A DNA stretch of 64,000 nt, from the NCBI GenBank assembly GCA_020137815.1, contig CM035356.1:1240001-1304000 (forward strand), read 5' to 3'. The first letter of the stretch is position 1. Every line of letters begins with the position of its first letter. The notes under the pieces were generated by a model, which worked only from the letters and a program-made list of their open reading frames with translations, was not told the DNA's origin and ran no database searches. Of this stretch, positions 1,507 through 41,180 are shown in pieces. A program made the translations under genes and the position numbers. The DNA comes from Hormiphora californensis. Taxonomy: Eukaryota > Animalia > Ctenophora.

Positions 1507-4500
1507 TAAGGCCATTTGCCAAAGAGTTTATTGGGTCTCGTGGCTGTCGTCTGTTCACAATTGTGAGTAATGGACTGATGGCCTAACATGTATTGTTTGA
1601 TGGCATATATAATTTCACTCTACCCGAGAGATTTATCTTCAATCTCTATTTTCTCCCCTAACGAAGCTGTCAGTAAAACTTCGAGGAGAGAAATATAAAT
1701 CGTGTTTAAGCAATATGTCAAATATATAGGAGCTTATAATGAGGCCGGCCTCATCTCCTTGAAGAGAGGGATTGCTCCTCAAAAAGCACATTAACTTAAT
1801 AACTAGTTTTTATCCGTTTTCAATTCCTAGTGGTTTTAATAAAATAGCTTACTTATAATTGCTACTTTAATAGCTCTTCTGCTAGGCTATGCTTGGTGTA
1901 CTTAGATTGCAAAACCTCCACCAACTGGTTATGCTTAACAAGAATAACTGCATTATGTTTCATAATGCTATGTTTCCCCGCCAACCTTTATTTTGATAAC
2001 CATCTAATGTGAAGGCGGGACAGACATTTCCGATCATTTATGAATCACTCAAACCGTATACAGTATAGAACAAATCTTTGTGTTTTAGTAAAATTAAATT
2101 GAGCGGCTCACATCTCCTGAAAACGTGCCATTGAAGTATTTGATGAAGGAGCAACACCGTTGTCCCTCGCAACTAATTGGGTTACGTCACGGGACAAAAA
2201 AGCGTGACACTTCACTAGTATGTAAAATTGTCGAATTCTAAACCCCTATGCCTTTTTACAAAAGGCATCCGGGTGAATACCTTCGGCATTCACCGGGCGG
2301 GGAAAAATATTTATATATTTCTGCAGCGGTTTAGAACGGAATAATTTTCCTCAAATAATTTATTCTCTCCCCCATGTAGCCAATAGGTCATGAGAAGAGG
2401 CGATCTGATCGCCGAACCAAATGTCAGACCAATCCACAGATCCCGATAATGGTACGTCCCCCACCCTCCCCCATTATAAACACATTGAACCCTTGAACCT
2501 TTTTACCAGTAACACTTTATCTAGCCATGACTTGTACTTTTAACCCATAAAATATGCCGGTAAGTTTGTGCTCTCTTGCATGCTTTTCTATAATTCCTTC
2601 GTGATTATCTTGACACACACCCAATCACATAATAAACATATTTCTTTCTGTTGTGATTATTATGATGCTCCTTTTCTCTCTCATCATGCATAATTTGTAG
2701 TTCAAATGAAGGCTGCAAAGCTGCAAGTGACAAATTAATCCTTTGTGTGTGAAGCAATTTGACCTCGTTCAATAATATATTGAGAATATCTTCGTGTCTA
2801 ATGAATAGCTTCAAAACCGTTGTGTATAGATCTTGCCAGTGAACTGTTCTCTCCTGCACTATTATACACCTTCTGTAACCACCCTAATCTAATCTAATCC
2901 TTGTACCCCAGGAACGGATCCAATTTTAATTACAGCAGTTGTCTTTGCGGGTTGCTCTTTGGTCATCATCGTAGGTTGGCCATGTGCTGGAAATCAGCGC
3001 TGTCCCCCCCAAAAAAAACACACGATAAAACAGTAAAGTACATGATAATTATAATTTTTGAGATGTTTATGAGTTACGACGGGGTAAGGGGTTACGACTG
3101 AAGCTGACAATACCCCCGTAATAGAGAGCTCTAGAACAGTCTCTATAGAGATTAGAGGCATTACTTTTATGAAAGACAGTTACATGATCCACTCTCTTGT
3201 GATGCCTTTTAACATCTATCCCGATTCCCGCATAACGTCATTTTTCAATCGCAAATTTAACCTCTCTTTATGAACTTTTTAAATTCCCTGATAATAGCTG
3301 TCATCTTTTTTAAATGGAAGCAATAAACCAATCAAACCAGGGTCACGAACAAATATGAAGTGTTACGCACAATTAATATGTTTCGTGCGCTTTGAAACTG
3401 GATTATAATTTATCGTGTATTAATTATCTGTGAGGAGTTAAAAAGGGAGATGAATGACAGGTCCGCACTCGGTGTGTCTTACTATCAGTTATCGCCATGT
3501 AAGGAGCTTTAAGTGAGCCTGACATTGATGAGACTGTCATGTGCCTTGATCCCTGATTTAGTTCAGTTCAGTTCAAGAATTTGTGAAAACACAGGATACA
3601 TTAAAATAATAAGCCTCCTAAAAACACACGGTCAGCTCAGCGAACATAAAATCACACAAGAATGTTACGAGCACCACTCCAATATTGAGTTGCTGTTGGC
3701 TTGAGCAGGGTAACCGTGACAGGGGGTGTGTCAGGAAAAGTGGAGAGAAAACTACCCAACGAGATTTGAACTGGTGAAGAGTTGAAGCCTCTTTTACAGT
3801 TCGTGGAAGAATATTCCACAACCTAGACTAGTACCGCAAATGACTGTTCATACAATGAAAGGTTAGATCGTTGGGCTTCATATGAATAACGCGGGACGAT
3901 AGCTCTTGGGCAGAGCGGTGCGTATCAGCGAAGGTCATAGCAGTATGTTAGGTATCTCGTTGTTATACACTTTCCAAACAAGGATGGCAGTGTACCTTTC
4001 CCGACGGCGTTGAAGTGACAAAAGTCCCAAAGTTGAAGACGTTGCCAGTAATCCAACCCCTTGAGACCAGCAATCTTGCGAGTGTAGGATCGCTGGATCT
4101 CCTCAAAACGACTGATATCCCCGATTTTAGTAGGTGACCACAGTGTGCAGCAGTAGCTCATGGGGACGCACTAGTGACTTGTAAAGAGTCATCATGGTGC
4201 GGCGAGTTCTGGATCTGAAGGCACTTGTGTCCATCCAGCAACCCGACTAGCCGTGGAGACTACACGAGATATTTGGGCCGACCATTGCCCATCACTCGAG
4301 AGTACAACACCTAAATCACGCACAGTGTCGAAGGTCGATGAACTCCATCAGAGAGTTGATAGGAATAGTTCTCAGCACTGAACGGTAGTTCTCTGAGAGA
4401 ATTGGTTTGATTCAGCGTATAGTTCATGACCTCGAACTTGGACTGGTGCAAGACATGTTTTGTAGCTTCCGCCCCGGTTATCACACTGTATAGATCCTTT

Positions 4501-7500
4501 GTAGGTTCAGTTTGTCAACCATAGTCCGGTAGCAGAGAATATTTTGGTGTCATCAGCGAACGACAGTGAAGAACCGTGTTGATTACGGATTCCAAGTCAA
4601 TTACGTAGATCAAAAATAGTAGTGGGCCGAGCACAGTACCTTGTGGGACACCGCTTCTGACCTCTGCAAGGAAGATGATGTGCCGTCGACTAAAACCGTT
4701 TGTTTCCGGTCTAGCAAGAAGCTGCGGATCCATTCAAGGAGTTTGCCCTTAACTCCATCTTCTGCAGTTTTTCGAGTAGCACACCGATGTCAACTTTATC
4801 AAACGCCTTCTCGAAGTCCAAGTAGATTACATCCACTTCAAGAAGGTCGTTGAGATTGTTCAGAATATTGTCAATGTGACGAGTGAGTTGGGATAAGCAG
4901 CTCTCTTGCTTCTAAACCCATGCTGAGACTCGTTGAACAAATTCTTGATTCAAAGTATGACACCATTTGAGATCTTACAACCCTTTCAAAGTCTGGCAAT
5001 GTGGTGGTTAGTGAGATCGGGCGGTAGTTTTCAGCTTTCATTTTAGGACCCTTTTGTAAAGTGGCGCAATGTACTGAAGTTTCAGACAGGGTGGTACAAT
5101 ACCAGAATCAAACGATTTGGCCCATAAGATGGATAGGGGGTAGGACAGCGATGATCGGCAGTCACGCAGAATTCGGCAGGTATATCTCCTGGGGGGCGGC
5201 TGATAAGGATTGAGTTCATACAGTGCCTTTTCAATATCGGTGGCGGAGAATACGATGTCTGAGAGGCTGCATGTAGAAGGAGTAATGTTGTTGCAGCTGC
5301 TGAAGGGGAGTTTGAAGGAGGTGTGTGTGTGTGTGTTGTTTTGCACCGCCCGTCATTCCTCCCACTTTACTGCCCCACAATGGTCGGCAGACAACCTATA
5401 TTAATATCACTCTTCGCCACGTCCCCCACACGTAGGGATAATGTGTGATGGTTCGGTTTGGGTCCTGGTATTTTGTTGAGCAAGCTCAACATTTCCCTCG
5501 AACCTTCGCCGGCATCACAGAAGAGCCTTTGATACAGTGAATCTAATATTAGACTGACATACCTATGTTGTCAGGACAATGGATGGAATTTACCTGTCTC
5601 ACAGACTGGTCTTTGGTTACTACTGCTCCAGGGAGCTGTAGAGGTAGGTGGGTTGGGATATGACAATACCGTGGGTTCACCATCTAATCGGTGACGGCTG
5701 AAATATCTTATCACACCTCAGGTCTTTGGTCAAAACCGCTAGCAGTACTTATCAGCATGCAACCTGGGGGTCCGGACAGTAATTTCTTAGGAACACAGAT
5801 AAGCATGAAAAACGCTTATGTAAAATTTGGTGAGCATTTGGCAAATTATCAGCTCCCAGGGGTTGCAATTGCGGGGTAATTACTTGCCAACGGCGGAGGT
5901 GGCCCTTTGTTATGGCCCAGAACTGCCCTACCTTAATATTGGGACCCTTATGATGTGGTTTTGTGGAATTCCCCGGCCGTAGCGATTCTTGCCTGTGTAT
6001 GTACTTCTTTCAGATCGGGATGGTTGGGGATGGTTTATTCGAATAGGTTACTTCTGTATACTAATTTGGAGAATTTGTGCAGATCCAGTGTGTTGCTGGG
6101 AGTGAGAATGTTGTTGATGATATTGGTAGTCGAGTTTGTATCGTAGCTCATCTAGGTCTGGGCAGTGGAGGAGCTGTGGTTCCGCATTCTTTGACTTTGC
6201 AAAGTCACAGAGGTTGGATATGGATTTGTTTGTTTGAGATGGCGCTGTTTAGGTTGTTTTGTCGGAGATTGCCCGGGTTAGACTTCTGAGGTATGGTTTT
6301 TGAGAGAAGTTTAGTTTGGGGTGGTCTCTGATGAGTTGTTAGAGCAGCGTGGTTGTCCAGTTGGAGTAATGGCCTTCTCGATTTGTTTTATGAATTTCTT
6401 TGTGCAGTCTTCTTTCATTAGCGATATGAGTTGGGTTTTGGTTAGGCCGAAGGGGTTTGCGGTGTTAAGACTGTCTTTGGTTGCTCTTTTGGCGATTAGG
6501 TCCGCGGCCTCGTTACCGGGGATGTTGGAGTGGGCTTTAACCTTTGAATTGTTACATTGTTGTAGATTTGTAGTTTATGGAGGTTGTTGATTGTGGAAAT
6601 TAACTGGTTCGGTTTGTCTGTCCCTTCACAAGATTAGTTAGGTGGGTTTGGAATCTGTATGTATGGTAATGTTCATGTACTTGGTGCATAACTCAGTAAA
6701 TTGATGGCTACCATATTTATTGCTTGAAGTTCAGCTTGGTTGATTGTGTTGATTGGGGAAAGAGTTTGGATTATAATTTTGTACGAGGTATCGTACAATA
6801 TTATGGCTCCGGCACCGTGACTGGGCGGGTTGGTGTCCATTTTTGAACCGTCAGTATATATTTCGATATTTCCGTTTGTGAATATTTGGTTTTTCGGAGA
6901 AATGGATAAGTTGGGTGGAAGTAATGTCCAGGTCTGAACCCGGGTTTAGGTGGCGCAAGTAGTTTTCTATGTCTTTGGAGGGGGTGAGTTGGCTCTTGTA
7001 CCGTGGTTTGGGTCTGACCACCAGTTGTTGTTGCTAATGAGGTGGAGTAGTTGTTAATTCTTTCTTTGTTTAAGAGAAAGACAAGAGGCTTACACCGGCG
7101 AGCTTAGTCAGTGTTGCTGACTGAGTATGTTTATGGCCGCCTGTGATCTTACGGTTGACGGCGTTTTGGACCGTTTGCATCTTTTGGAGTGCGGTTTGGT
7201 TATTCAGGATCGTGTGACCCCAGATACCGCCTGCGTATAATAGATTTGGATAATATCTGGTTGTGGACGTGTCTGGCTTGGTCCAGGGTTAGCCCCCAAT
7301 GTTTGTGATGAGGAAGTTTAAGGGGCGGGCAGCTGCCTTGGTTTTAGTAATTTTTTGTTGTGTGCGTTTTGTAATTTAGATTTTGTCTAGGTCGACGCTA
7401 GATAGGGGGCAAATGGTTTTATGGGGAGTTGTTCGTTGCCCAGTTGGATGTGTTTAGAGAGATTTTTTGGTGTGGTGTTGTGGAAAGCAACTAAGTTAGT

Positions 7501-8263
7501 TTTTGTGGGTACTTAGTTTTAGGCCTTGTTTGTGTACCCATTCTGTTAAGATTTTCATTTGTTCGACAATTATGTCGTGCATGGTGACGTTAAGGTCGGG
7601 GCCAGTAATAATTATAACAATGTCATCCGCGTATAGTATGATAAGGTTGAGGTCGCAGCAGGTGAATTGGATTGTGTTCATGCATAAGTTCCAGAGGAGT
7701 GGAGATAGGATACCCCCTTGGGGGGTGCCTCTGTGGATTTGTTGCTCTAGCCATTCCCCACCTAATTCAAGGATTACAGTTCTATTTCTGAGGGAGTGAC
7801 TGATCCATTCGAATAGTTCAGTTGGTAATTTTATCTTATCTAAACCTCGCTCTAGCGCAGTGAAAGATACTCTGTCGAAGGCGCCTTCGACGTCTACGAA
7901 AGCCCCGAGGCGTATTGTTTGTCAGCGAGCGCGTTTCTATCCTGCTAGTAAGATCGTGATCGCGGGATATGGTTGATTTACCTTACGGAAACCATGTTGG
8001 TTGTCGATTAGTTTCATGTTAATTTTGAGGTCGTCGGGAGAAAGATTAGTAGACCTCTTTCCATGAGTTTGAGAATGTTTGACGACAACAGATGATGCGG
8101 TAACTCTTGGGGTAGTGTAATTGACTTACCTGGTTTTGGATGATGACGCCCTTGCTCTTCAGCCAAGTTCCGGTTTCAACCTGCAGGTGAGGGTGTTAGC
8201 ATGAAGAGGCGTAATTTATGGGAGATATGTCCCATGTATCGATTAACATGCCGTACTGATCTT
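1507..8263. repeat. Degraded tandem copy of 8325-15152 (unique flank, CR1-like RT segment, and 3' half of the inner LINE)
   Basis: Both copies start TAAGGCCATTTGCCAAA and run colinearly to CCG(T)TACTGATCTT. This copy carries many 1-2 nt indels that break every ORF, and a ~60-nt unrelated junction lies at 8264-8324. Confidence 0.92.
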
Positions 8264-9715
8264 CTCACTACGGCCAGGGGGATGTGAGTGGGTGATACAA
8301 AGCCCCGGTTCCTTTGCAGTCAGTTAAGGCCATTTGCCAAAAGAGGTATTGGTCTCGTGGCGTCGTCTGTTCACAATTGTGAGTAATGGACTGATGCCCT
8401 AACATGTATTGTTTGATGGCATATATAATTTCACTCTACCCGAGAGATTTATCTTCAATCTCTATTTTCTCCCCTAACGAAGCTGTCAGTAAAACTTCGA
8501 GGAGAGAAAATATAATCGTGTTTAAGCAATATGTCAAATATTAGGAGCTTATAATGAGGCCGGCCTCATCTCCTTGAAGAGAGGGATTCTCCTCAAAAAG
8601 CACATTAACTTAATAACTAGTTTTTATCCGTTTTCAATTCCTATGGTTTAATAAAATAGCTTACTTATAATTGCTACTTTAATAGCTCTTCTGCTAGGCT
8701 ATGCTTGGTGTACTTAGATTGCAAAACCTCCACCAACTGGTTAGGCTTAACAAGAATACTGCATTATGTTTCATAATGCTATGTTTCCCCGCCAACCTTT
8801 ATTTTGATAACCATCTAATGTGAAGGCGGGACAGACATTCCGATCATTTATGAATCACTCAAACCGTATACAGTATAGAACAAATCTTTGTGTTTTAGTA
8901 AAATTAAATTGAGCGGCTCACATCTCCTGAAAACGTGCCATTGAAGTATTTGATGAAGGAGCAACACCGTTGTCCCTCGCAACTAATTGGGTTACGTCAC
9001 GGGACAAAAAAGCGTGACACTTCACTAGTATGTAAAATTGTCGAATTCTAAACCCCTATCCTTTTACAAAAGGCATCCGGGTGAATACCTTCGGCATTCA
9101 CCGGGCGGGAAAAATATTTATATATTTCTGCAGCGGTTTAGAACGGAATAATTTTCCTCAAATAATTTATTCTCTCCCCCATGTAGCCAATAGGTCATGA
9201 GAGAGGCGATCTGATCGCCGAACCAAATGTCAGACCAATCCACAGATCCCGATAATGGTACGTCCCCCACCCTCCCCATTATAAACACATTGAACCCTTG
9301 AACCTTTTTACCAGTAACACTTTATCTAGCCATGACTTGTACTTTTAACCATAAAATATGCCGGTAAGTTTGTGCTCTCTTGCATGCTTTTCTATAATTC
9401 CTTCGTGATTATCTTGACACACACCCAATCACATAATAAACATATTTCTTTCTGTTGTGATTATTATGATGCTCCTTTTCTCTCTCATCATGCATAATTT
9501 GTAGTTCAAATGAAGGCTGCAAAGCTGCAAGTGACAAATTAATCCTTTGTGTGTGAAGCAATTTGACCTCGTTCAATAAATATTGAGAAATATCTTCGTG
9601 TCTAATGATATAGCTCTCAAACCGTTGTGTATAGTATCTTCCAGTGAACTTTCTCTCCCTGCATTTATACACCTCTGTAACCCCCCTAATCTATCTAATC
9701 CCTTGTTACCCTCAG

Positions 9716-9827
9716 GAACGGATCCAATTATAATTACAGCAGTTGTCTTTGCGGTTGTTCTCTTTGTCATCATCGTACTGTTGGCCATGTGCTGGAAATT
9801 CAGGAGCAAAAAACACCACGATAAAAA
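9716..9827 (+). CDS. Transmembrane exon of a single-pass membrane protein (degraded copy near 2912-3033)
   Basis: Acceptor CCCTCAG| and donor |GTAAGT flank (G)TDPIIITAVVFAVVLFVIIVLLAMCWKFRSKKHHDK, a hydrophobic helix followed by basic stop-transfer residues. Confidence 0.65.
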
Positions 9828-10356
9828 GTAAGTCATTGAATAATTATATTTTGAGATGTTTTATGAGTTACGACGGGGTAAGGGGTTACGACTGACAGCT
9901 GACAATACCCCCGTAATAGAGAGCTCTAGAACAGTCTCTATAGAGATTAGAGGCATTACTTTTATGAAATGACAGTTACATGATCCACTCTCTTTGTGAT
10001 GCCTTTTAACATCTATCCCGATTCCCGCATAACGTCATTTTTCAATCGCAAATTTAACCTCTCTTTATGAACTTTTTAAATTCCCTGATAATAGCTGTCA
10101 TCTTTTTTAAATGGAAGCAATAAACCAATCAAACCAGGGTCACGAACAAATATGAAGTGTTACGCACAATTAATATGTTTCGTGCGCTTTGAAACTGGAT
10201 TATAATTTATCGTGTATTAATTATCTGTGAGGAGTTAAAAAGGGAGATGAATGACAGGTCCGCACTCGGTGTGTCTTACTATCAGTTATCGCCATGTAAG
10301 GAGCTTTAAGTGAGCCTGACATTGATGAGACTGTCATGTGCCTTGATCCCTGATTT

Positions 10357-12157
10357 AGTTCAGTTCAGTTCAAGAATTTGTGAAAACACAGGATACATTA
10401 AAATAATAAGCCTCCTAAACACACGGTCAGCTCAGCGAACATAAAATCACACAAGAATGTTACGAGCACCACTCCAATATTGAGTTGCTGTTGGCTTGAG
10501 CAGGGTAACCGCTGACAGGGGGTGTGTCAGGAAAAGTGGAGAGAAAACTACCCAACTGAGATTTGAACTGGTGAAGAGTTGAAGCCTCTTTTACAGTTCG
10601 TGAAGAATATTCCACAACCTAGCACCTAGTACCGCAAATGACTGTTCATACAATGAAAGGTTAGATCGTTGGGCTTCATATGAATAACGCGGGACGATAG
10701 CTCTTGGGCCAGAGCGGTGCGTATCAGCGAAGGTCATAGCAGTACTGTTAGGTATCTCGTTGTTATACACTTTCCAAACAAGGATGGCAGTGTACCTTTC
10801 CGACGGCGTTGAAGTGACAAAAGTCCCAAAGTCTGAAGCGTTGCCAGTAATCCAACCCCTTGAGACCAGCAATCTTGCGAGTGTAGGATCGTCCCCGCCC
10901 TGACGCTGGATCTCCTCAACACGACTGATATCCCCGATTTTAGTAGGTGACCACAGTGTGCAGCAGTAGTCTAGATGGGGACGCACTAGTGACTTGTAAA
11001 GAGTCATCATGGTGCGGCGAGTTCTGGATCTGAAGGCACTTAGTGTCCATCCAGCAACCCGACTAGCCGTGGAGACTACACGAGATATTTGGGCCGACCA
11101 TTGCCCATCACTCGAGAGTACAACACCTAAATCACGCACAGTGTCTGAAGGGTCGATGAACCTTCCATCAGAGAGTTGATAGGAATAGTTCTCAGCACTG
11201 AACGGTAGTTCTCTGAGAGAATTGGTTTGATTCAGCGTATAGTTCATGACCTCGAACTTGGACTGGTGCAAGGACATGTTGTTAGCTTCCGCCCAGGTTA
11301 TCACACTGTATAGATCCTTTTGTAGGTTCAGTTTGTCAACCATAGTCCGGATAGCAGAGAATATTTTGGTGTCATCAGCGAACGACAGTGAAGAACCGTG
11401 TTTGATTACGGATTCCAAGTCAATTACGTAGATCAAAAATAGTAGTGGGCCGAGCACAGTACCTTGTGGGACACCGCTTCTGACCTCTGCAAAGGAAGAT
11501 GATGTGCCGTCGACTAAAACCGTTTGTTTCCGGTCTAGCAAGAAGCTGCGGATCCATTCAAGGAGTTTGCCCTTAACTCCATATCTCTGCAGTTTTTCGA
11601 GTAGCACACCGATGTCAACTTTATCAAACGCCTTCTCGAAGTCCAAGTAGATTACATCCACTTCAAGAAGGTCGTTGAGATTGTTCAGAATATTGTCAAT
11701 GTGACGAGTGAGTTGGGATAAGCAGCTCCTCTTGCTTCTAAACCCATGCTGAGACTCGTTGAACAAATTCTCTGATTCAAAGTATGACACCATTTGAGAT
11801 CTTACAACCCTTTCAAAAGTCTTGGCAATGTGGCTGGTTAGTGAGATCGGGCGGTAGTTTTCAGCTTTCATTTTAGGACCCTTTTTGTAAAGTGGCGCAA
11901 TGTACTGAAGTTTCAGACAGGGTGGTACAATACCAGAATCAAACGATTTGGCCCATAAGATGGATAGGGGGTAGGACAGCGATGATCGGCAGTCACGCAG
12001 AATTCTGGCAGGTATATCTCCTGGTGGGCCGGCTGAATAAGGATTGAGTTCATACAGTGCCTTTTCAATATCGGTGGCGGAGAATACGATGTCTGAGAGG
12101 CTGCATGTAGAAGGAGTAATGTTGTCTGCAGCTGCTGAAGGGGAGTTTGAAGGAGTG
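10357..12157 (-). mobile_element. 3' part of a CR1/L2-group LINE (reverse transcriptase and 3' end)
   Basis: ORF 10591-11871 has NYRPISLTS, YLDFEKAFDKV, GVPQGTVLGPLLF and FADDTK. A (TGAAC)3 tail lies at 10357-10371. A 14-nt insertion near 10892, absent from the duplicate copy, shifts the frame. Confidence 0.93.
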
Positions 12158-12884
12158 TGTGTGTGTGTGTGTGTTTTGCACCGCCCGTCATTCCTCCCAC
12201 TTTACTGCCCCACAATGGTCGGCAGACAACCTATATTAATATCACTCTTCGCCACCGTCCCCCACACGTAGGGATAATGTTGATGTTGTTCCGGTTTGGG
12301 TCCTGGTATTTTGTTGAGCAAGCTCAACATTTCCCTCGAACCTTCGCCGGCATCACAAGAAGAGCCTTTGATACAGTGAATCTAATATTAGACTGACATA
12401 CCTATGTTGTCAGGACAATGGATGGAATTTACCTGTCTCACAGACTGGTCTTTGGTTACTACTGCTCCAGGGAGCTGTAGAGGTAGGTGGGTTGCCGGAT
12501 ATGACAATACCGTGGGTTCACCATCTAATCGGTGACGGCTGAAATATCTTATCACACCTCAGGTCTTTGGTCAAAACCGCTAGCAGTACTTATCAGCATG
12601 CAACCTGGGGGTCCGGACAGCTAATTTCTTAGCAAGCACAGATAAGCATGAAAAACGCTTATGTAAACTTCTGGTGAGCATTTGGCAAATTATCAGCTCC
12701 CAGGGGTTGCACTATTGCGGGGTAATTACTTGCCATACGGCGGAGGTGGCCCTTTGTTATGGCCCAGAACTGCCCTACCTTAATATTGGGACCCTTATGA
12801 TGTGGTTTTGTGGAATTCCCCGGCCGTAGCGATTCTTGCCCTGTGGTATGCTACTTCTTTCAGATCGGGATGGTTGGGGATGGT

Positions 12885-15800
12885 TTATTCGAATAGGTTA
12901 CTTCTGTATACTAATTTGGAGAATTTGTGCAGATCCAGTGTGTTGCTGGGAGTGAGAATGTTGTTGATGATATCTTGGTAGTCGAGTTTGTATCGTAGCT
13001 CATCTAGGTCTGGGCAGTGGAGGAGCTTGTGTTCCGCATTCTCTTTGACTTTGCATAAGTCACAGAGGTTGGATATGGATTTGTCTTTGTTTGAGATGGC
13101 GCTGTTTAGGTTGTTTTGTCCGGAGATTGCCAGGGTTAGACTTCTGAGGTATGGTTTTTGAGAGAAGTTTAGTTTGGGGTGGTCTCTGATGAGTTTGTAG
13201 AGCAGCGTGGTTGTCCAGTTGGAGTAATTGGCCTTCTCGATTTGTTTTATGAATTTCTTTGTGCAGTCTTCTTTCATTAGCGATATGAGTTGGGTTTTGG
13301 TTAGGCCGAAGGGGTTTGCGGTGTTAAGACTGTCTTTGGTTGCTCTTTTGGCGATTAGGTCCGCGGCCTCGTTACCGGGGATGTTGGAGTGGGCTTTAAC
13401 CTTCTGAATTGTTACATTGTTGTAGATTTGTAGTTTATGGAGGTTGTTGATTGTGGAAATTAACTGGTTCGAGTTTGTCTGTCCCTTCACAAGATTAGTT
13501 AGGGTGGTTTTGGAATCTGTATGTATGGTAATGTTCATGTACTTGGTGTCATAACTCAGTAAATTGATGGCTACCATATTTATTGCTTGAAGTTCAGCTT
13601 GGTTGATTGTGTTGATTGGGGAAAGAGTTTGGATTATAATTTTGTACGAGGTATCGTACAATATTATGGCTCCGGCACCCGTGACTGGGCCCGGCTTGGT
13701 GTCCATTTTTGAACCGTCAGTATATATTTCGATATTTCCGTTTGTGACTATATTTTGGTTTTCGGAGAAATGGATAAGTTGGGTGGAAGTAATGTCCAGT
13801 TCTGAACCCGGGTTTAGGTGGCGCAAGTAGTTTTCTATGTCTTTGGAGTGGGTGAGTCTGGCTCTTGTACCGTGGTTTGGGTCTGACCACCAGTTGTTGT
13901 TGCTAATGAGGTGGATGTAGTTGTTAATTCTTTCTTTGTTTAAGAGAAAGACAAGAGGCTCTACACCGGCGAGCTTAGTCAGTGTTGCTGACTGAGTATG
14001 TTTATGGCCGCCTGTGATCTTACGGTTGACGGCGTTTTGGACCGTTTGTATCTTTTGGAGTGCGGTTTGGTTATTCAGGATCGTGTGTCCCCAGATACCG
14101 CCTGCGTATAGTAGATTTGGCATAATTATCTGGTTGTGGACGTGTCTGGCTTGGTCCAGGGTTAGCCCCCAATGTTTGTTGATGAGGAAGTTTAAGGGGC
14201 GGGCAGCTGCCTTGGTTTTAGTAATTTTTTTGTTGATGTGCGTTTTGTAATTTAGATTTTTGTCTAGGTCGACGCCTAGATAGGGGGCAAATGGTTTTAT
14301 GGGGAGTTGTTCGTTGCCCAGTTGGATGTTGTTTAGAGAGATTTTTTGGTGTGTGTTGTGGAAAGCAACTATGTTAGTTTTTGTGGTACTTAGTTTTAGG
14401 CCTTGTTTGTGTACCCATTCTGTCAAGATTTTCATTTGTTCGACAATTATGTCGTGCATGGTGACGTTAAGGTCGGGGCCAGTAATAATTATAACAATGT
14501 CATCCGCGTATAATATGATAAGGTTGAGGTCGCAGCAGGTGAATTGGATTGTGTTCATGCATAAGTTCCAGAGGAGTGGAGATAGGATACCCCCTTGGGG
14601 GGTGCCTCTGTGGATTTGTTGCTCTAGCATTTCTCCGCCTAATTCGAGGATTACAGTTCTATTTCTGAGGGAGTGACTGATCCATTCGAATATTTCAGTT
14701 GGTAATTTTATCTTATCTAAACCTCGCTCTAGCGCAGTGAAAGATACTCTGTCGAAGGCGCCTTCGACGTCTACGAAAGCCCCTAGGGCGTATTGTTTGT
14801 CAGCGAGCGCGTTTTCTATTCTGCTAGTAAGATCGTGAATCGCGGATATGGTTGATTTACCTTTACGGAAACCATGTTGGTTGTCGATTAGTTTCATGTT
14901 AATTTTGAGGTCGTCGTGGAGAAAGATTAGTAGACCTCTTTCCATGAGTTTGAGAATGTTTGACGACAAACAGATGATGCGGTAACTCTTGGGGTTAGCG
15001 TAATTTGACTTACCTGGTTTTGGGATGATGATGCCCTTGCTCTTCAGCCATAGTTCCGGTTTCAACCTGCAGGTTAGGGTGTTAAGCATGAATAGGCGTA
15101 ACTTATGGGAGATTATGTCCCATGTATCGATTAACATGCCGTTACTGATCTTATCTAGGCCAGGGGCTTTGGCCCTTTTTACCTGTTTTATGGCTTTGTT
15201 GAGGTGGCTGATTTTCAGTTGTTCGGTAACCGGCATATTGATTTTATTCTTCTGTTTCCATGTCTGGTTAGATTCATCGGGATTCTCTGGGAAGTGAGTG
15301 TTAGCGATGGTTTTGAGAATGGTTAGTGGGTCGTCCGAAGATGCTTGGGGGCCCGTGTCGATTTTTGTGAGGTTTATACGGGGTTTTGAGTGGTTTTTCA
15401 TGCACTGTGAGACTTCCTTGATTGAAGTAAGTTTTGAGATTTTTTCTTTCCAGCGTTGTTCTTCACAGTTTTTGATTTCCTCACCAAGGGCTTTTTTGAG
15501 TCTGCTAATTTCTGATCGGGTTTCCCCCGACTTGCTCTTTTGTTTCTTTAGAGGTTTTAGTTCTTGTTTGATAGCTGTCGCAGTCGGGGACCAGGGCGAC
15601 GATTTTAGGTGTTTTACTACTGTGGTCGGGGTGGCTTCGTTGAAGGAGGAGGTTAGTGCTTCACATATAGACTTGTATTGACTGTTCATGGCCTTTTTGC
15701 TCGGGTTGTTGTGGATGTTTAACTTACTGAATTTTTGAGTTACTAGTTCCCTAAAGAGGGGCATGTCTGTATTTTTGGGTAATTTAACCTTCTCTGTTTC

Positions 15801-16952
15801 TATGTTGCCAAGATTAATTTTGATGTGTATTCTTTTGTGGTCTGATAGGGTCGTGTCAGTGAGGGACCACTTGTGTACTCTGTCATGCGCTTTTTCATTA
15901 GTTATGGTCAGGTCGATGAGAGATTGGCCATTTTTACTCACGAAGGTGGGTTCGTAAGTTGTATTTTCGATATAAAGCCGTTCTTCATCGAGTATACTTT
16001 CCAGAGTGATACCTCTGACGTTGGTGATTCTATCTCCCCATGATTTGTTACGGGCGTTTGAGTCGGTACATATTATCCAGGCTGTGTTCTTTTCTTGGAC
16101 ATAGCTGCTAGTTTGTAGGAGTTTGGTCTCTGTGTCGGGATTGATATGTTTTTGCCCTTTTGGGGCAGAGAGATAGGCCGAGGTGATTACTATAGATTTG
16201 TTATTGCCAAATTTGTATCTGATGCTGACTATTTCGTCGTTTGAAAGGGTTGCTAGAAGGTGTGCGTTTTTGGCCATGTTTATAGGGACAATAATACAGG
16301 CACGGGGGGTTACGTGGTCCTTGGTAAAACAACGGGAATATTTTGGGACGAATTGGACTCTGCCGTTCTTACCTGTATAAGGCTCTTGGAGGGCTAGTAT
16401 TTTGTTGTTACCGGTCTTGGACATGATTTCCTTTGTTGCTCCAATTTCAGTATGTAGGTTGTGCTGTATTATCTCTGTGAGGAAATTAGAGGGGTTAACC
16501 TTCTTGTTTTCCTTTGGGTGTTTGTGGGGGGCGTTGACAACTTTGGGGGCCGGTATTATGGCTGGGTTGTTGGCAGGGGAGTTAACATTATCTGTGGGAC
16601 CATTTGTAACTGAGTTACTGGCGGGGGTGCTAACGAAATTGTTATTTGGAGCTGGGTTACCGGCGGGGGTACTGTGGTTAGCGGGGGTGCCGTGTGTAAC
16701 TGGGTTACTGGCGGGGGTGCTATAGTTAGCGGGGGTGTCATGTGTAACTGGGTTACTGACGGGGGTGCTATAGTTAGCGGGGGTGCCATGTGTAACTGGG
16801 TTACTGGCGGGGGTGCTATAGTTAGCGGGGGTGCCATGTGTAACTAGGTTACTGGCGGGGGTGCTATTGCTAGCGGGGGTGACTTGTGTGGTGTAGTCAG
16901 GGTTAGGATGGCGTTTGTAGCGTTTCCGGTGTCTTCCAGCTGGCGGGGACAT
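12885..16952 (-). CDS. ORF2 of the inner LINE: APE endonuclease, RT, RNase H and C-terminal CCHC knuckle (1355 aa, uninterrupted)
   Basis: APE motifs LQEPY, DSNA, IDLT, SDH. RT motifs DVEGAFD, GTPQGGILSP, YADD. RNase H motifs YTDGSK, AEL, TDS, VKAHSNIPGNEAAD. C-terminal CDLC…EH…C. Confidence 0.96.
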   Translation of the reverse strand: MSPPAGRHRKRYKRHPNPDYTTQVTPASNSTPASNLVTHGTPANYSTPASNPVTHGTPANYSTPVSNPVTHDTPANYSTPASNPVTHGTPANHSTPAGNPAPNNNFVSTPASNSVTNGPTDNVNSPANNPAIIPAPKVVNAPHKHPKENKKVNPSNFLTEIIQHNLHTEIGATKEIMSKTGNNKILALQEPYTGKNGRVQFVPKYSRCFTKDHVTPRACIIVPINMAKNAHLLATLSNDEIVSIRYKFGNNKSIVITSAYLSAPKGQKHINPDTETKLLQTSSYVQEKNTAWIICTDSNARNKSWGDRITNVRGITLESILDEERLYIENTTYEPTFVSKNGQSLIDLTITNEKAHDRVHKWSLTDTTLSDHKRIHIKINLGNIETEKVKLPKNTDMPLFRELVTQKFSKLNIHNNPSKKAMNSQYKSICEALTSSFNEATPTTVVKHLKSSPWSPTATAIKQELKPLKKQKSKSGETRSEISRLKKALGEEIKNCEEQRWKEKISKLTSIKEVSQCMKNHSKPRINLTKIDTGPQASSDDPLTILKTIANTHFPENPDESNQTWKQKNKINMPVTEQLKISHLNKAIKQVKRAKAPGLDKISNGMLIDTWDIISHKLRLFMLNTLTCRLKPELWLKSKGIIIPKPGKSNYANPKSYRIICLSSNILKLMERGLLIFLHDDLKINMKLIDNQHGFRKGKSTISAIHDLTSRIENALADKQYALGAFVDVEGAFDRVSFTALERGLDKIKLPTEIFEWISHSLRNRTVILELGGEMLEQQIHRGTPQGGILSPLLWNLCMNTIQFTCCDLNLIILYADDIVIIITGPDLNVTMHDIIVEQMKILTEWVHKQGLKLSTTKTNIVAFHNTHQKISLNNIQLGNEQLPIKPFAPYLGVDLDKNLNYKTHINKKITKTKAAARPLNFLINKHWGLTLDQARHVHNQIIMPNLLYAGGIWGHTILNNQTALQKIQTVQNAVNRKITGGHKHTQSATLTKLAGVEPLVFLLNKERINNYIHLISNNNWWSDPNHGTRARLTHSKDIENYLRHLNPGSELDITSTQLIHFSENQNIVTNGNIEIYTDGSKMDTKPGPVTGAGAIILYDTSYKIIIQTLSPINTINQAELQAINMVAINLLSYDTKYMNITIHTDSKTTLTNLVKGQTNSNQLISTINNLHKLQIYNNVTIQKVKAHSNIPGNEAADLIAKRATKDSLNTANPFGLTKTQLISLMKEDCTKKFIKQIEKANYSNWTTTLLYKLIRDHPKLNFSQKPYLRSLTLAISGQNNLNSAISNKDKSISNLCDLCKVKENAEHKLLHCPDLDELRYKLDYQDIINNILTPSNTLDLHKFSKLVYRSNLFE
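16600..16885 (-). repeat. 48-bp coding tandem repeat (TPASNPVTHGTPANYS, about 5 copies) in the ORF2 N-terminus
   Basis: Visible in both the DNA and the translation. Confidence 0.9.
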
Positions 16953-17377
16953 GGCTATAGGTTAGGAGGATTTGAGTTGATTATTTTGGGGGTGGTGTTA
17001 GCTGTGTTAAAAAGGTTACCAACTGTTGGCGAGGGGAGCAAGATTTAACAAGCAAGATTTACGATTGTGGGCGGGGGTAGATAAGAGAATCAAGAAAAAT
17101 CCCATTGCTTTGATTTAGTACAAATAGTTTAGAAGATTACGAGTATTGAAGTCATTAGCTTGTATGGTTTATCTTTCAGACTGAATGTACACAACATAGC
17201 ATGTTTTTAAAAAAAGGAAAGGTCAGCATGTGAAAAGACACGTTACAGCGGTGGTGTTAACTAAAAGCAGCTGCAGCCACACAAAAACACGCATTTCCCT
17301 TGACAAATTGTCTAGTATGTAGATGGGGGCGGTACTGGTTTTGATTGGTGGCACCCGACCTTTGTTCTACTATGAGG

Positions 17378-18303
17378 CTAGCTAGTTACTACCATAGCCG
17401 CTTCAGTCGTTTTCTTGAAGTGTTCTACTTCATATGGCTTCAGTGTGTGGAAGGCCCACAGTTTGGGCTCCAAACCCAACGGAAAAGTGGCCTTTTCCGG
17501 CAACTCGATGAAAATCTGTACCCCCAGTTTAGTGCGCTTAGGGGGCATGAGAGGGGAGCACGCTGCATTTTTACCTGCCACATGGACCTTGTTTAGTGTT
17601 AGCCCTTTTATTACAGTTTCCACAAGCTCTTTCGTGACGAGTAGGTTTGAGCTGGTGTTGGGGGGCAAAGTGACCCGCAGGTAGTCGGCGTGGTTTTCAA
17701 TTCTGTTAGAGGGGGCAATTTAGGGTGTGCTGCGGCATAAGGTTAAATGAATTAGGCGGGCTAGGGAGATAGCAGAAAATGGCGGGCTGAGCAGATGAAA
17801 TATATCTAAATATATAGTTGTATCTACTGTGTGGGGTAGGGATTGAGTTACCTTGGTATGTATTTGAGTTCACGAGGGACTCTTTCCGGGATTAGGTTTT
17901 CTTTCCCGCGTACAAATATGGCCCTGTTCGCTGGAGATCGATGCAGAGTGATGCCAAGTTCAGCGCATAATCAATGGCAACATCGCCATTTCATAGCTCT
18001 CAAAATCCTTGTTCTCAAGCTGTAGGAAATCTCTATGAAAGAGAACACCACCATCCATTTGAGCCGTCTTCCTGAAGGGTAAGGGGGTCGTGTTAGGAGA
18101 GTGTAGAGTGGTAGAGTATTTGTAAAAGTTATATACTATGGAGATTTGAGGGGGGGGGGTGTAAATGTGGTTACTGCTTACCTCTCTGTTGCCTTGGCCT
18201 TTTTTCTGGCCTGTTCTATCGGGGAGAGGGTGTCGGGGGATCTGCTACGCTTCTTCCCTCTCTTTGCTGGTTGTTTTCCCTTAGTGCTGGAGGGTTTTGC
18301 CAT
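17378..18303 (-). CDS. Putative three-exon ORF1 of the inner LINE (exons 18303-18182, 18071-17852, 17702-17378)
   Basis: Donors AG|GTAAGC and AG|GTAACT; acceptors CTAAC…CCCTTCAG| and CCCTCTAACAG|. Both introns are phase 2 and all junctions are in frame. Exon 2 is 220 nt and needs one base removed near 17965 (error or mutation). The N-terminus is Lys/Arg-rich. Confidence 0.7.
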
Positions 18304-18784
18304 GGCTAGTTGGGGGGTAAGGAATGTTAGAAGGTGTGACGTCAGGGTCTCTTTGTAGATAAGGGGGCCTGAGCGCGCGCAGGCGTGCTGCGTAAAGAGT
18401 TTGCTTTCCATGAGCTCGGGTTTTTTCTTCTCGCGCGCTACACGGGATAGGAGTATATTACATCATCGTCCTGTGGGGGAATTGTTTTTGTTATGGGTGG
18501 GGATGTAATGTGTTATCAAGGTGCTGATTTATTGGACATCAGTAGCCGTATAATGTAAGTAGACTTAGTGACTGGGGCCCAAACTAATGGGCACCGTTCA
18601 CTTAATCTAGTTTTATGTTATAGGGGGCCCCATTCCCGCTGCTCACGCAACGAGGCAGGGGAGACCCTAAGTTCATTGAGCTATTACAGTCGAGACTGGA
18701 ATAGCTCACGGTGCCATGAGTGAGGTCGGCTAGATCTCTGGCGGGTTTTTACTCCCCAAAATCGGGGCGATAGCCGGGCGTCCG

Positions 18785-18968
18785 TAGTCATTAGCCGCAC
18801 TCCCGAGGCGCTCCGGCGACGACTCGGCAAGCCGAGATCGTCCCCAGCACACCCCCGGAGCACGTTCCCAGGATGGACCGCGGGGAGGTTGACTAATCGG
18901 ACTTGCAGCGGTGTGGCACCAGAAGGAGCGAAGCTCCAACTGGCATCACACCACTACCATTCCATCCC
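18785..18968 (-). ncRNA. HDV-like self-cleaving ribozyme at the 5' end of the inner LINE
   Basis: Minus strand: P1 GGGAUGG/CCAUCCU (G1·U wobble), P2 UAGUCA/UGACUA, P3 ACC/GGU, L3 UCCCCGC, P1.1 GG, long P4 (CGUGCUCC…GGAGUGCG), and J4/2 GCUAA with the catalytic C at 18794. G1 abuts the TSD. Confidence 0.92.
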
Positions 18969-21000
18969 AGTTTGAAGGAGTGCTGAAGACAGAGGTAAAT
19001 TGTGATTGAAATAGTTCTGCCTTCATCTCGGGAACGTCCGTAAGTGACCCATCACTCAATTGTAAGGGAGGGATGCGTGACCGGGTCTTCCTCTTTCGGT
19101 TGGCGTACGACCAAAAGAATTTAGGGTTGGCTTTTAGTTTCATCAACGCTTCGTTTTCATCAAAATCGAGTCGCTGAGAAATGTGACACAAGATGGCCCA
19201 AGTAATTCTGGAAACACCAACCTCGAGCTGTGGCAAAAGGTGAGGTTTATTCTGCCGGGCTAGAGTAATCCGTTTGTTCAAACTCCGTTGTTTCACTTTC
19301 AGTTTCCTGAGAATAGGGTCCCTTCGTTTTTTACGGGCCTTCTTCATACGAGAGTGGTGGGATAAAACCTGTAAACAGTCAGGATAAAAAGCTGGACAAA
19401 ATCAGAACCGTCGCTGCTCTCGCAAATGTCGGCAAGTGCTACCCAGTCGATCGTGTCCAATTCCTTACACATTTCAGGGAAATCTGCCTCATGAAAGTCA
19501 TAAATATCAAAGTCCGTAAATTGATGGTCCAATTGACGACGAGGTTTGATTCCGAAACCAAGGGTAGAGCTGATCATATGGTGATCGGAAATACATGACT
19601 CTGATACCTCAGTTTTGAAGACATATTCGGGCCGGTTAGTGAGAATAAGGTCCAGAATATTCAAGCCCCTTGTAGGGGCATCAACAAGTTGAGTTAGGAA
19701 ATAATCGTTCACAAATTTTATGAACATCTGGGAACAAGTGTCAGATCCTCCACTGAGTGTTCCCCAGTCAATGTCCGGCATATTGAAATCACCCATAATG
19801 TAGATATCAGGACAACCCTTGTTAAGTTCACACTGATCAATGAAATGGGATAGATCATCAAAAAGTCCATTTGATGGGGAAGATGGCGCCCTGTAAACAA
19901 CACAAAAAACCGAGTGGGTCTCTTTGATGTAAACGGCAGCCGCACTATTGGAAGTGTCAGAGAATCTGAATTCGGAGGAAGGGGTCAGTTGGTTGTTAAT
20001 GTAGAGTGCACAGCCACCACCTCTCCTCCCTGCTCTATCACAAACGAATCAGGTGAAACCCTTCAATTTCCAATTGTGCATCAGAGAAATCATCACGCCA
20101 CCAAGTCTCCGTTATGCCGGTGCAAAGGATGGTTTTGACGGATTCTCCAATGAGTCCTTGATAAAAGAAAACTTCCACCGACAGTCACTAGCCGCGGAAG
20201 GCGTTACTAACTGCGGGCGTTGATGAGGAGTAATTCCGAAACCGTTCCCAGAACCCCATGGTAGTTGGTCGGGGTGTTCAGGCTCGGTTGGCCTGAGTGT
20301 GAGATGTTTGGGCCGGGGTGTGTGTTCCCTCGTCATCTCTTCCCTGAAGGACTGGAGAGATGATTCAGGGACGTCTTCACTTCTCGAAGAATCTCGTCCC
20401 TCACTGAGGCCATCAATGCCATGAGAAAATCCTCTTGTGAACGGATGTCATTGGTCGCGACACGGGGGTGGGTCTCAGTTTTAATGGTCTTCTTCTTCTT
20501 TTTCTTCTTAGGGTTTTGAGGAGCTGGAGCTGAGCGAGGGGGCTCTTTCTGCTCCACTTTCTGAGAGGCATCACTGGTTTTGTTACCAGTACTCTTCAAT
20601 GAATTACCTTAGTAGGGGGGTACTTCACTTCTCCGAGTGTTCTTTAAATGTGTGTCTTTACATTCTTTGTCGGTACAGACTCGGGAGATCTCAGAATTAT
20701 GGCAGAGAGGTGGGTGAAAATTCTGACACTTATCACCAAAGTTACACCCGAACGAGTTGCCGTTCCGTACTGACAATAACGGAGGCATTTCTGGGGATGT
20801 TCCTTGCTGCAAGGCTTACCACTAATCAACTTGTCACCATTTGGGCCATGAGGACAGTCTCTCAGTAGATAACGTTCACAAACATTGCTGAATTTGGGAA
20901 CACCTTGCTGTTTCACCTCTCCATAAAAGAAGCTCAAGATCCAATCTTTTGAATGTCACTCTCCCAACAGGAGTTCCAACAAGAATCTTCTTGACAGGGC
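18969..21000 (-). mobile_element. 5' part of the host CR1/L2-group LINE (APE endonuclease and Cys/His-rich ORF1), frameshifted; 5' end unresolved
   Basis: Fragments GITETW…RGGGCALYI, GDFNMPDIDW, LDLILTN, ISDHHMI and KANPKFFWSY. CCCH-like fingers (CERYLLRDCPHG…CSKEHP) at 20600-20900. Confidence 0.88.
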
Positions 21001-26303: not shown

Positions 26304-26479
26304 GCTTGTAGTGGAGAAACGGTATCGAAACACCGTACACAGACGCACACTTTACGTTGCGTGCGGGTAATTAACACATATTCATCCTGATCTAGCTCAA
26401 AAAAGTGCTTAATTACCCGTGCACAACGTAAACGGTGCGTCTGCACACGGTGTTTCAATACCGTTTCTCCACTACAAGC
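26304..26479. mobile_element. Palindromic MITE-like element
   Basis: About 75-bp imperfect inverted arms, GCTTGTAGTGGAGAAACGGTAT… / …ATACCGTTTCTCCACTACAAGC. No clear TSD. Confidence 0.7.
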
Positions 26480-33297: not shown

Positions 33298-36200
33298 TCT
33301 CTCTATCACCCTCTCTCATTTCCAGGAGGAGTTCCTAAGGCAGCAGGAAGAAGCTGAACGTGAGGCAGACAGGAAAGAAGAGGAGCGGCTGGAGAAGTTG
33401 CGCATTGAAGAGGAACGAAAACAGAGAAAGAAGGAGAAGGAAAAGGAACGAAAGGAGAGAAAGAAGAAAGAGGGAACATGGCTGACAAAGGCAGAAAAGG
33501 AACGACGAGAGAGGGACCAAGCAGCACTAGAAGCAATGCGGCAGCAGGGAATTAAAGTGAGTGCTCAAATTCCTTCAAGCAATGCCACCTGTTACAACAC
33601 CCCTGTCTCAATAGGTGCCTGATAAGGATGGAGAGAAGAAGCCCGCTGGTAAGGTGCGATACGGTGCCCGACAGAGAAAGAAGAAACCGCAACCTCAGGT
33701 ACGTAACGCGCGATGACCATCTTACGGTGGGAGGTGGCTCGTTCGAAAGTTTTAAAGCGTGTGCTGCGCGCATTTCTCCTTGCATCATCTCACAAATCAG
33801 AGAGAATGTGAGACAGAGACACAGAGAGAGTGATTGATCAGTGACAAGTGTCACACCGCAACAGGAGATGGTTGAGTGAACCAGAGAGAGAGGTTACATA
33901 ATCACACACATACAGTATATACCACAATCATGGAACACAAAAAGCACTTGGCGCGCCCTAAAAAGTAGAACGCGGGAACTTTCAAACCCCTCGACCACGC
34001 CCATTTTCGATCCCAATCCCCCCATTTTGATCCCAATTCTCCTCATTTCAGGAGGAACAGATAATCGAGGCGATGAATGACAAATCTCCCTCTGCCGCTG
34101 CTGTAGCTGCTGTACCCTCGACCCCAGAGGACCCTACAGCCGAGACCTGGGAATTGTTAGATACCCCCAAGGTGGTGGTGGAGCCATCCAGTGTGGCTGA
34201 CAATTGGGACGAGAGTGAGGAAGAGAGTGGTGCTGTTCCGGAGAAGGAAGATGAGGCCCCCATGGTAGGTAGAGGGGCAGGGAAACAGTTAATTTTGTTG
34301 GGATGTCTGTTTGGATGCACTCCAATCAGAAGAAGTAAAAACGGTGCATAAAAATATGGTGCATGGTTCATTTCATAACACACAAATATAATTTCAGTCT
34401 GACCCGGTCCTTGTTGATGAAGATGGAGAGATAGAAGAGGAAGAAGAGGAAGAAGAAGAAGATGAGGAGTCTGAATCTGAGGACGAAGAAGATGAAGATG
34501 ATAGTGAAGATGAAGAGAGCGAGAGTGATGAAGAGGATCTGCCCTGTAAGAGAGAGGTTGGAGGTTAGGAAGGAGAAAGCTGATAAGAACAAGGATCCCA
34601 ATGTGTTGAGGGCACCCATCTTGTGTGTTCTTGGTCATGTGGACACCGGTAAAACGACCATTTTGGATAAGCTGAGGAAAACCAACGTTCAGGTAATGTT
34701 ATGTAGGAGTGTCACTATTTGAGGCAGATTCTAGTGGGAAGATGTTTGATGTAAACGACTCCTATCTCTGTTGTCATACACTGACTGTACATCGCGCAAC
34801 CTCACGTAGCCGCACCGGGTCGAAGGCCCGGTGCGAAGAGAAGGGTCTTATATGAGACAATATCTCTGTACTAAAACATATTATAATGATCCCACTATCT
34901 CCCACTAATGGTCCAGCACTAACACTGTACTATACTCTCCCTATCCTACTAACACCATCCCACTGTTACAGGAGGGAGAGGCAGGTGGTATAACTCAGCA
35001 GATTGGTGCTACCAATGTCCCCATTGAGAACATTATCAGGGAGTGCTCCCATCTCTCCATGCCAGAACTAAAGATACCTGGCATGCTGATCATCGATACA
35101 CCTGGCCACGAGTCTTTCAGGTATGATTCAGAAGTGTACGGAGATAATGAGAGATATGTATTGAGAGCTGTGTGGATTGTTATGGGATGTATGCTCTATA
35201 AAAGTAACCAAAGTGTTGTTGTTGATTGAAGATTGGAACGTTTCACAACCTTTCTCTTCACAGTAACCTGTTACCTTTATGTGACAATGCCATCCTGCTT
35301 GAGGATAACTAACACCCCATCCCACTAACACTATCTCACCTCACCCAGTAACCTGAGGTCCCGGGGAAGTTCTCTATGTGATATGGCCATCCTTGTTGTG
35401 GATATAATGCACGGGTTGGAACAGCAGACGATAGAGAGCATTAACCTACTGAAGAAGAGAAGAACACCCTTTATTATCGCCCTCAACAAGGTAAGCTAAG
35501 ATGTCACCAAGATAATAGTTTTTTTCTTCATTAGAGCGGTCCTTGATCCTTCTCTCAGTATCCAATGTTGCCATTGACCATCTCACCTTGATCTGCCGAA
35601 TCCTCGATGTATAACGTTATTCTCATCCCCTTACCTCAGATTGATCGTCTGTACGAGTGGAAGATTATGAACAAGACCCCTGTAGAGGAGGCTATTAAGA
35701 AACAGAAGAAGATAACACGAGACGAGTTCAGTGATAGGGCAAACCAGGCCATGTTGCAGATAGCTGAGCAGGGTCTGAACGCTAAGCTCTTCTACGAAAA
35801 CCCCGATGTTAGGACCTATATTAGCGTTGTACCTGTTTCTGGAATCTCAGGTATGCATTATCTGACTGATGATGATGATTATATGACTAGCAGTCATATA
35901 ATCATCTGCCCCCTCTGTTTTAAATCTAAAGTGTTGGATCTTGTTTCCTGGTTCTTGGCCATTTCCATTCTATTCGGTCCCTAACTTTCAACCTAATCAC
36001 TCCCACTCCCCTTGCCTTGCTCGACATTTTCTTGTAAAGGAGGGTTAGAGCATTGAAATTTACAATCAACCCCCTATTATACCCTCTTTGCAGGTGACGG
36101 TATGGCTGATCTGCTGTGTTTGGCATGTGAGCTATCCCAGAGAATGCTGGGTCCCCAACTAATCTACAAAGATGTCCTGGAGGCCATGGTACTTGAAGTA

Positions 36201-38397: not shown

Positions 38398-38624
38398 TTT
38401 TTTACTCTCCCCTGGGGTTCTTTTTAACTGTATGTTTGTCTCGCACAGACAGCATGTGGTAAGGGTACGATATATATTTGAGCTAGGTTACAATGAGCGT
38501 GTGGGAGAGATCATAGGTCATTGTAGGGCGATTTTTTTGTCACTGTTTGCTTTCTTGTTTCCTATCCAAACAAATCAATTGTCTTTGAATTTGTCGTAAA
38601 ATCCTCGATGATGAAACTAACAGC

Positions 38625-38740
38625 ACGCGCAAATATATTTTATTTGCGCGGCCGCGGCATAATTTTATGAACTAACGCCGCGCGCGCGAGAAATAAAAGT
38701 GAATTTTTATTTTTTTCAGCAACTTTCGCTGCACTTTTTT
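38625..38740 (+). promoter_or_regulatory. Putative promoter (CGCG clusters with T tracts)
   Basis: CGCG-rich patch between the eIF5B end and the first FARSA exon. Confidence 0.5.
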
Positions 38741-38790
38741 TCGTTACGAAGGTGTTTTCGTTACCTTCTGAGCCCTTTATCTCCCGAAAT

Positions 38791-40944: not shown

Positions 40945-41180
40945 TGTGAGATATGGGGAGAGTTTATTTTCTGTTTTAACTTTCACAGATCTGATATTAT
41001 TTTGTTTCACGTTTTTTAGTGAACCACACATACACGAGAAGTTGTAAAGTCTGTCAAGTGAGTGTGTGTATTTCTTTATTTGTGGGAAGGTGTTGTCTTC
41101 TTTCTTTCTACCACCTAGTTAACTTCCCCTCCCCTACATACATGTAACTTGTCAGTGACAATCACACCTTCCCTTGACAG

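Follow-up and report, generated by a model that had tools for sequence, protein, structure and literature searches.

Textbooks treat intron loss on retrotransposition as the mark of LINE activity, and retrocopies are detected on this basis. Intron retention has been described as highly unusual and as characteristic of Penelope-like elements (PLEs; PMC8557442, PMC3846280), which have been contrasted on this point with all other types of retrotransposon (PMC3846280). Introns kept after retrotransposition are what the locus described here has in common with the PLEs Penelope, Athena and Chlamys (PMC8557442, PMC3846280). The original prediction drew this comparison; it holds for the introns and is otherwise an analogy only. 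We found neither a GIY-YIG endonuclease nor pseudo-LTRs, and instead of a single ORF the element has two, with ORF2 encoding an APE/RT/RNase H protein with a LINE-type RT. Transcripts of other retroelements, namely TART, L1, Tad and kangaroo-1, have also been reported to contain introns, although their genomic copies keep the sequence (PMC1636488). The TART introns lie in a non-coding antisense RNA, whereas in the present element splicing appears obligatory for the ORF1 frame. Tad or kangaroo-1 may offer a closer precedent. In the full-text literature, with Repbase and most subscription journals outside the search, we found no description of a LINE whose ORF1 needs splicing. Ctenophore mRNAs carry trans-spliced leaders, present in 56% of Iso-Seq reads (PMC8527503). 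RNAs of transposable elements in Hydra likewise use the host spliced leader, which is found on about 30% of their Iso-Seq reads; the sections of that report on these RNAs describe neither an element-level architecture nor intron retention (PMC12220107).

The stretch of Hormiphora californensis DNA that we analysed spans 64,000 nucleotides (contig CM035356.1, positions 1,240,001–1,304,000; hereafter the window). On its minus strand, at 18968–12158, lies a 6.8-kb non-LTR retrotransposon inserted into a LINE that we labelled CR1-like by inference, with its endonuclease at 20048–19347 and its RT at 12201–10594 (Table 1). The 14-bp target-site duplication (TSD) sequence occurs twice on the minus strand of the window, once at each element end. 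Contigs of X4, X5 and X6 contain the target family uninterrupted, with a single copy of the 14-bp sequence, so the duplication is a true TSD. The element ends in an (AC)n tail and has no terminal inverted or long repeats. The TSD, the tail and the empty target in X4, X5 and X6 support arrival by target-primed retrotransposition, as had been proposed from the sequence of this copy.

Table 1 Features of the element on the minus strand of the window. X5 and X6 are contig sets with diverged copies; P0077 and P0078 are homologous proteins.
Feature	Positions	Strand	Remarks
TSD, 5′ copy, 14 bp	18969..18982	-	Within the CR1-like LINE
5′ leader, 665 nt	18304..18968	-	Structured, conserved, 11 upstream ATGs
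Acceptor-like site before ORF1 ATG	18306..18350	-	CTAAC, pyrimidines, TAG; unchanged in X5
ORF1 exon 1, 122 nt, basic N-terminus	18182..18303	-	5 synonymous versus 2 non-synonymous codons against X5, p = 0.008
Intron 1 (putative), 110 nt, phase 2	18072..18181	-	Kept in X5
ORF1 exon 2, 220 nt (4 nt fewer in X5)	17852..18071	-	Frameshift at 17969-17972 in window copy
Intron 2 (putative), 149 nt, phase 2	17703..17851	-	P0078 contiguous across; present in X5, its 3′ end in X6 as well
ORF1 exon 3, 325 nt, including stop codon	17378..17702	-	70% / 62% identity to P0077 / P0078
Inter-ORF spacer, 425 nt	16953..17377	-	6 ATGs, indel-tolerant
ORF2, 1355 aa, intact	12885..16952	-	APE endonuclease, RT, RNase H, C-terminal CCHC
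3′ UTR with (AC)n tail at its end	12158..12884	-	Fold z -0.68, ordinary structure
TSD, 3′ copy, 14 bp	12144..12157	-	Exact match to 5′ copy

The target LINE is near full length (21100–10370, minus strand); it retains Cys/His-rich pieces of ORF1 and has a (CTGAA)n-like tail at its 3′ end, and deep coverage in every DNA run points to a very abundant family. The 3′ part of the element and 3.8 kb of flank recur as a tandem 96.6% duplicate (1507–8280 versus 8325–15166; 63 mismatches and 135 gap openings, mostly of single bases), which is probably a noisy long-read duplicate that escaped collapsing, and not a second insertion. Elsewhere in the window, an inverted repeat of 1,679 nt (43955–47702, 96.5%) lies on an array of ~32/64-bp tandem units, possibly a foldback-type element, and smaller palindromes occur at 50843–51458 and 26304–26479.

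ORF2 matches the Pfam families of the APE endonuclease (PF14529, E = 7e-17), RT (PF00078, E = 2e-32) and RNase H (PF00075, E = 7e-17), and carries a CX2CX9HX4C motif at residue 1297. APE and RT in one ORF, together with the TSD, the simple-repeat 3′ tail and the lack of terminal repeats, are the features of an APE-type LINE. The LOA clade belongs to the R1/I group and includes Loa, Lian, Baggins and bilbo; its ORF1 is associated with DUF4780 or RRM-like domains, a link for which the literature search turned up no supporting paper. The element resembles LOA members in the APE–RT–RNase H–CCHC order of ORF2, in the TSD and simple-repeat tail, and in an ORF1 free of gag knuckles. It differs in that ORF1 is split by two introns, in the acceptors before both ORFs and in its ctenophore host, and neither the exons nor P0077 or P0078 had a Pfam match, DUF4780 and RRM-like domains included. 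On these sequence features we class it as LOA-like, set apart from LOA proper for want of a DUF4780 match in ORF1. The gag-like CCHC knuckles expected of R1-clade ORF1s were absent from the translated exons. In a quick, midpoint-rooted RT tree of 91 rows, built without named Repbase LOA references, ORF2 pairs with P0001 (support 100) within a 21-row group that includes Mnemiopsis proteins (SH-aLRT 93); the enclosing 71-row group (support 100) contains loci with a DUF4780 ORF1 and a protein from the moth Mythimna. The nearest named relatives are from Pleurobrachia bachei for ORF1 and Mnemiopsis leidyi for ORF2, and the viral contigs searched gave only distant RTs. The N-terminus of ORF2 is rich in repeats: 48-nt (16-aa) tandem units at 16889–16562 (minus strand) vary in copy number among runs, and part of the array is common to a much deeper repeat. 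An AATAAA at 12889 (minus strand) overlaps the ORF2 stop codon, and early polyadenylation there would yield an ORF2 mRNA without the 3′ tail.

The two gaps that interrupt ORF1, first proposed as introns of 110 and 149 nt, stand where they had been placed. They have GT–AG ends (GTAAGC...CTTCAG and GTAACT...TAACAG), neither length is a multiple of 3, and both fall within the host intron range of about 90–340 nt. G content is 5% and 10% in the gaps, 23–25% in the exons and on average 16% in nine host introns of the window. A crude splice-site matrix was built from these nine introns, one of which entered it with its acceptor set 6 nt too far along. It ranks the donors 7th and 13th among 252 GT sites and acceptor 1 9th among 383 AG sites, while acceptor 2, at 94 of 383, is weak. 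The original description of host-like donors, branch points and acceptors is upheld, with acceptor 2 weak in the matrix; a pyrimidine tract like that of host introns is present too. Three higher-scoring acceptors within intron 2 (17787, 17761 and 17730) were rejected by eye: each lies out of frame or leads into an in-frame stop, and none fits P0078. Read-through of intron 1, which has one stop-free frame, was also rejected, because X5 has lost 2 nt from that intron and conservation in exon 1 follows another frame. With GT–AG ends, a branch-like motif and a pyrimidine tract, and with a conserved frame restored on their removal, both gaps are very likely real spliceosomal introns.

Two homologues of ORF1 were found among 1.84 billion representatives, P0077 from an ENA contig and P0078 from P. 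bachei (EukProt); a third match, P0079, was repetitive and was dropped as spurious. P0078, whose source is either a spliced gene model or an intronless element, aligns in three pieces (18025–17972, 17970–17851 and 17704–17405). Its residue 57 is common to both sides of gap 2, joining exon 2 to exon 3 at a split arginine codon. Because P0078 is contiguous across gap 2, junction 2 is fixed by homology despite the weak acceptor score. The P0077 residues just before acceptor 2 are unrelated to those in which P0078 and the window copy agree, a loss of similarity that fits an intron at the same position in the P0077 source. This check bears on junction 2 and not on intron 1, and P0077 and P0078 come without a link to an RT gene. 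Word-index searches, 159 loci and genome contigs gave no further relatives of ORF1.

A diverged copy in X5, another sample of the same organism, covers 17423–18897 with 45 substitutions and with indels in exon 2 (4 nt) and intron 1 (2 nt), counted on a unitig composite to which an adjacent contig adds four more substitutions. This copy keeps both gaps, and all four splice dinucleotides are unchanged. Intron 1 has seven substitutions and the 2-nt deletion, none of them in its first 14 or last 14 nt. The spliced ORF1 frame of X5 is open for 220 codons, 27 of which differ from the window copy, 19 synonymously and 8 non-synonymously (pS 0.125, pN 0.016, pN/pS 0.13; binomial p = 2.6e-7). The ratio for exon 1 is given in Table 1; exons 2 and 3 together give 14:6, against 4:24 and 3:26 when the sequence is read in either of the other frames. 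This pattern of substitution indicates that the spliced frame is under purifying selection. Selection on the spliced frame in X5 and the P0078 match at junction 2 bear out the proposal that three coding pieces are joined in frame. The alignment of family copies, suggested along with that proposal, gave coding-type conservation of the exons, both gaps kept and the frameshift absent from X5.

In a third variant, one X6 contig carries the end of intron 2, exon 3, the spacer and the start of ORF2, so the linkage of ORF1 to ORF2 is a family trait. No joint skipping either gap was found in the contigs of X1, X4, X5 and X6, which drop rare variants. Intron retention is very likely a trait of the family too. 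X5 has no deep contig over 18898–18968 into the target, which fits another insertion site or mere lack of cover. X5 and X6 are recorded as one sample, yet their ratios of element to target-LINE depth differ greatly and they hold different variants.

The net +1 shift in exon 2, ascribed in the original prediction to one extra base, is real; the excess is in fact 4 nt relative to X5, at 17969–17972, and P0078 spans it, matching either side in different frames. X1 and X4, probably the source sample, show 0 differences from the window at this site, so the frameshift is real and ORF1 of the window copy is broken. A TAGC duplication had also been suspected of creating the stop at 17378. X5 and X6, both of which cover the site, have no indel there, and P0077 ends at about the same place; the duplication is thereby discounted and the stop looks genuine.

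The 5′ leader is strongly folded (z = -9.77, with 0 of 20 shuffles as good) and has changed little: over the 594 nt that X5 covers, 5 positions differ, compared with ~6% in the introns. A search of Rfam matched nothing in the element, ribozymes included. The leader is presumably an internal promoter, an outron, or both. An acceptor-like YAG with a branch-like motif lies 2 nt before the ATG of both ORF1 and ORF2 (the ORF2 site at 16955). By a criterion chosen after these sites had been seen, a YAG 0–2 nt upstream together with a branch-like motif, 4 of 83 sense-strand ATGs qualify, both ORF starts among them. Neither site differs from the window in the parts of X5 and X6 that reach it. An AG also precedes the ATG of two neighbouring host genes, by 2 nt in one and 0 nt in the other. 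The sites before both ORFs may serve as acceptors for cis-splicing or for spliced-leader (SL) trans-splicing.

The window contains intron-bearing eIF5B-like and PheRS-alpha genes, the former label being our assumption from the translation. These two and a HEAT-repeat gene form an operon-like cluster on the plus strand (36000–43150), with short gaps and acceptors adjoining the start codons; a short ORF at 38791, before PheRS, has what we take to be an EF1-beta-type N-terminus. At 21652–21612 (minus strand), a 41-mer matches the published ctenophore spliced leader at about 39 of 44 letters, aligned by eye. It has no following GT and lies in a noisy region about 500 nt upstream of the ORF1 of the target LINE; it could be an error-bearing SL gene or the retroposed 5′ end of a trans-spliced RNA. 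Together with the nearest named relatives of the element's proteins, this match points to a cydippid ctenophore as the likely host.

How could such introns persist? Somewhat probably, the proteins are made from spliced mRNAs and an unprocessed full-length RNA serves as template. We place a leader trans-splicing step at slightly under even odds. The transcript would then be handled like a host two-gene cluster. A spliced leader would replace the structured, ATG-rich 5′ leader to give an ORF1 mRNA, then cis-spliced twice, and would replace the spacer to give an ORF2 mRNA. Processed RNAs would have lost the promoter-bearing leader, so that copies made from them could not propagate; should an ORF1 mRNA stop within the spacer, it would also be missing the 3′ tail on which priming depends. 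The unspliced nuclear RNA would be copied by the usual target-primed route, with ORF1p and ORF2p acting on it in trans. The filter would be which RNA has both ends, with no special reverse transcriptase necessary; if only the both-ended, unspliced RNA founds lineages, the introns would be inherited. As a whole, we offer tentatively the picture of a LINE that works as a miniature operon, in which separate ORF1 and ORF2 mRNAs, unable to found lineages, would arise by SL trans-splicing together with cis-splicing; the proteins would drop cis-preference and choose the unspliced nuclear RNA via its conserved structured leader, and coding introns would thereby survive across species ~30% diverged in protein.

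Trans-splicing is not required by the acceptors themselves, since candidate cis donors exist for both (18461, giving a 156-nt intron, and 17019, giving a 65-nt intron), with a strong further acceptor at 18471. Cis-splicing might then be the only process at work, with 5′ UTR introns in the leader and spacer, splicing partial, spliced full-length RNAs open to copying, and intronless daughters so poorly expressed, or silenced, that selection keeps the intron-bearing lineages. The introns are indeed more conserved between the window and X5 copies (15 changes in 259 nt, ~6%) than synonymous sites (19 in 153). Some precisely intronless copies would be expected, however, and the contigs examined, rare variants aside, hold no joint of that kind; moreover, at 65 nt the spacer intron would fall below the shortest of the nine host introns examined. 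We consider this account unlikely.

The spliced ORF1 product, predicted at about 220 aa with a basic N-terminus and without CCHC knuckles, agrees with the 220-codon frame of X5 and the translated exons. We infer from position, size and selection that it may be the RNA-binding ORF1 protein of the element. A continuous upstream ORF of about 200–875 aa is present in 10 of 15 metagenome relatives examined. Of these ten ORF1s, five have DUF4780 and eight have no CCHC match, so the missing knuckles are nothing special. Comparison of ORF1 with the ORF1s of eight relatives gave an hhalign probability of 0.1%, from a shallow alignment that leaves a remote link possible. No match was found in Pfam or among known ORF1 families, none in the PDB by sequence under E 0.17, and none by Foldseek. 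AlphaFold models were too low in confidence for use (pLDDT 44 and 39), and Atlas matches to ferredoxin-like domains, under 0.9, are a weak lead.

This lack of DUF4780, Pfam, PDB and profile matches, against DUF4780 in half of the ten distant ORF1s, would suit a host gene captured at the 5′ end, serving as or replacing ORF1 and bringing introns that predate the capture. So would third-position G, which is host-like in ORF1 (27%, against 28–35% in host genes and 12% in ORF2). On the other hand, a host gene sits poorly with two homologues in the whole representative set and none in the annotated Mnemiopsis proteome, and the protein is like a LINE ORF1 in its size, its position and its basic N-terminus. 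Capture, which we hold to be improbable, would alter the origin only; the introns would still have to persist through retrotransposition.

Copying without a sense RNA template, by DNA-level duplication or from an antisense template as published for PLE intron retention (PMC3846280), is very improbable given the 14-bp TSD, the simple-repeat tail at the sense 3′ end, the lack of terminal repeats and the intact APE–RT–RNase H ORF2, and 12% silent divergence with a pN/pS of 0.13 fits separately propagating lineages. That the gaps are insertions in a decayed ORF1, as the weak acceptor 2 and the frameshift of the window copy might suggest, is just as improbable: their GT–AG ends fall exactly at frame-restoring, homology-defined places, and the exons are under purifying selection while both gaps are present in both compared copies.

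If the miniature-operon reading is correct, the element would be an autonomous LINE whose coding introns are obligatory and in which a Rev/RRE-like problem is solved by host trans-splicing. Intron retention would then depend simply on the use of separate RNAs for translation and as template, and not on an exotic enzyme. The element would offer a testable case both for the expression of ORF2 from a bicistronic LINE in an SL-trans-splicing animal and for the choice of template in trans. 'ORF2 only' LINEs in SL-trans-splicing genomes may hide spliced ORF1s.
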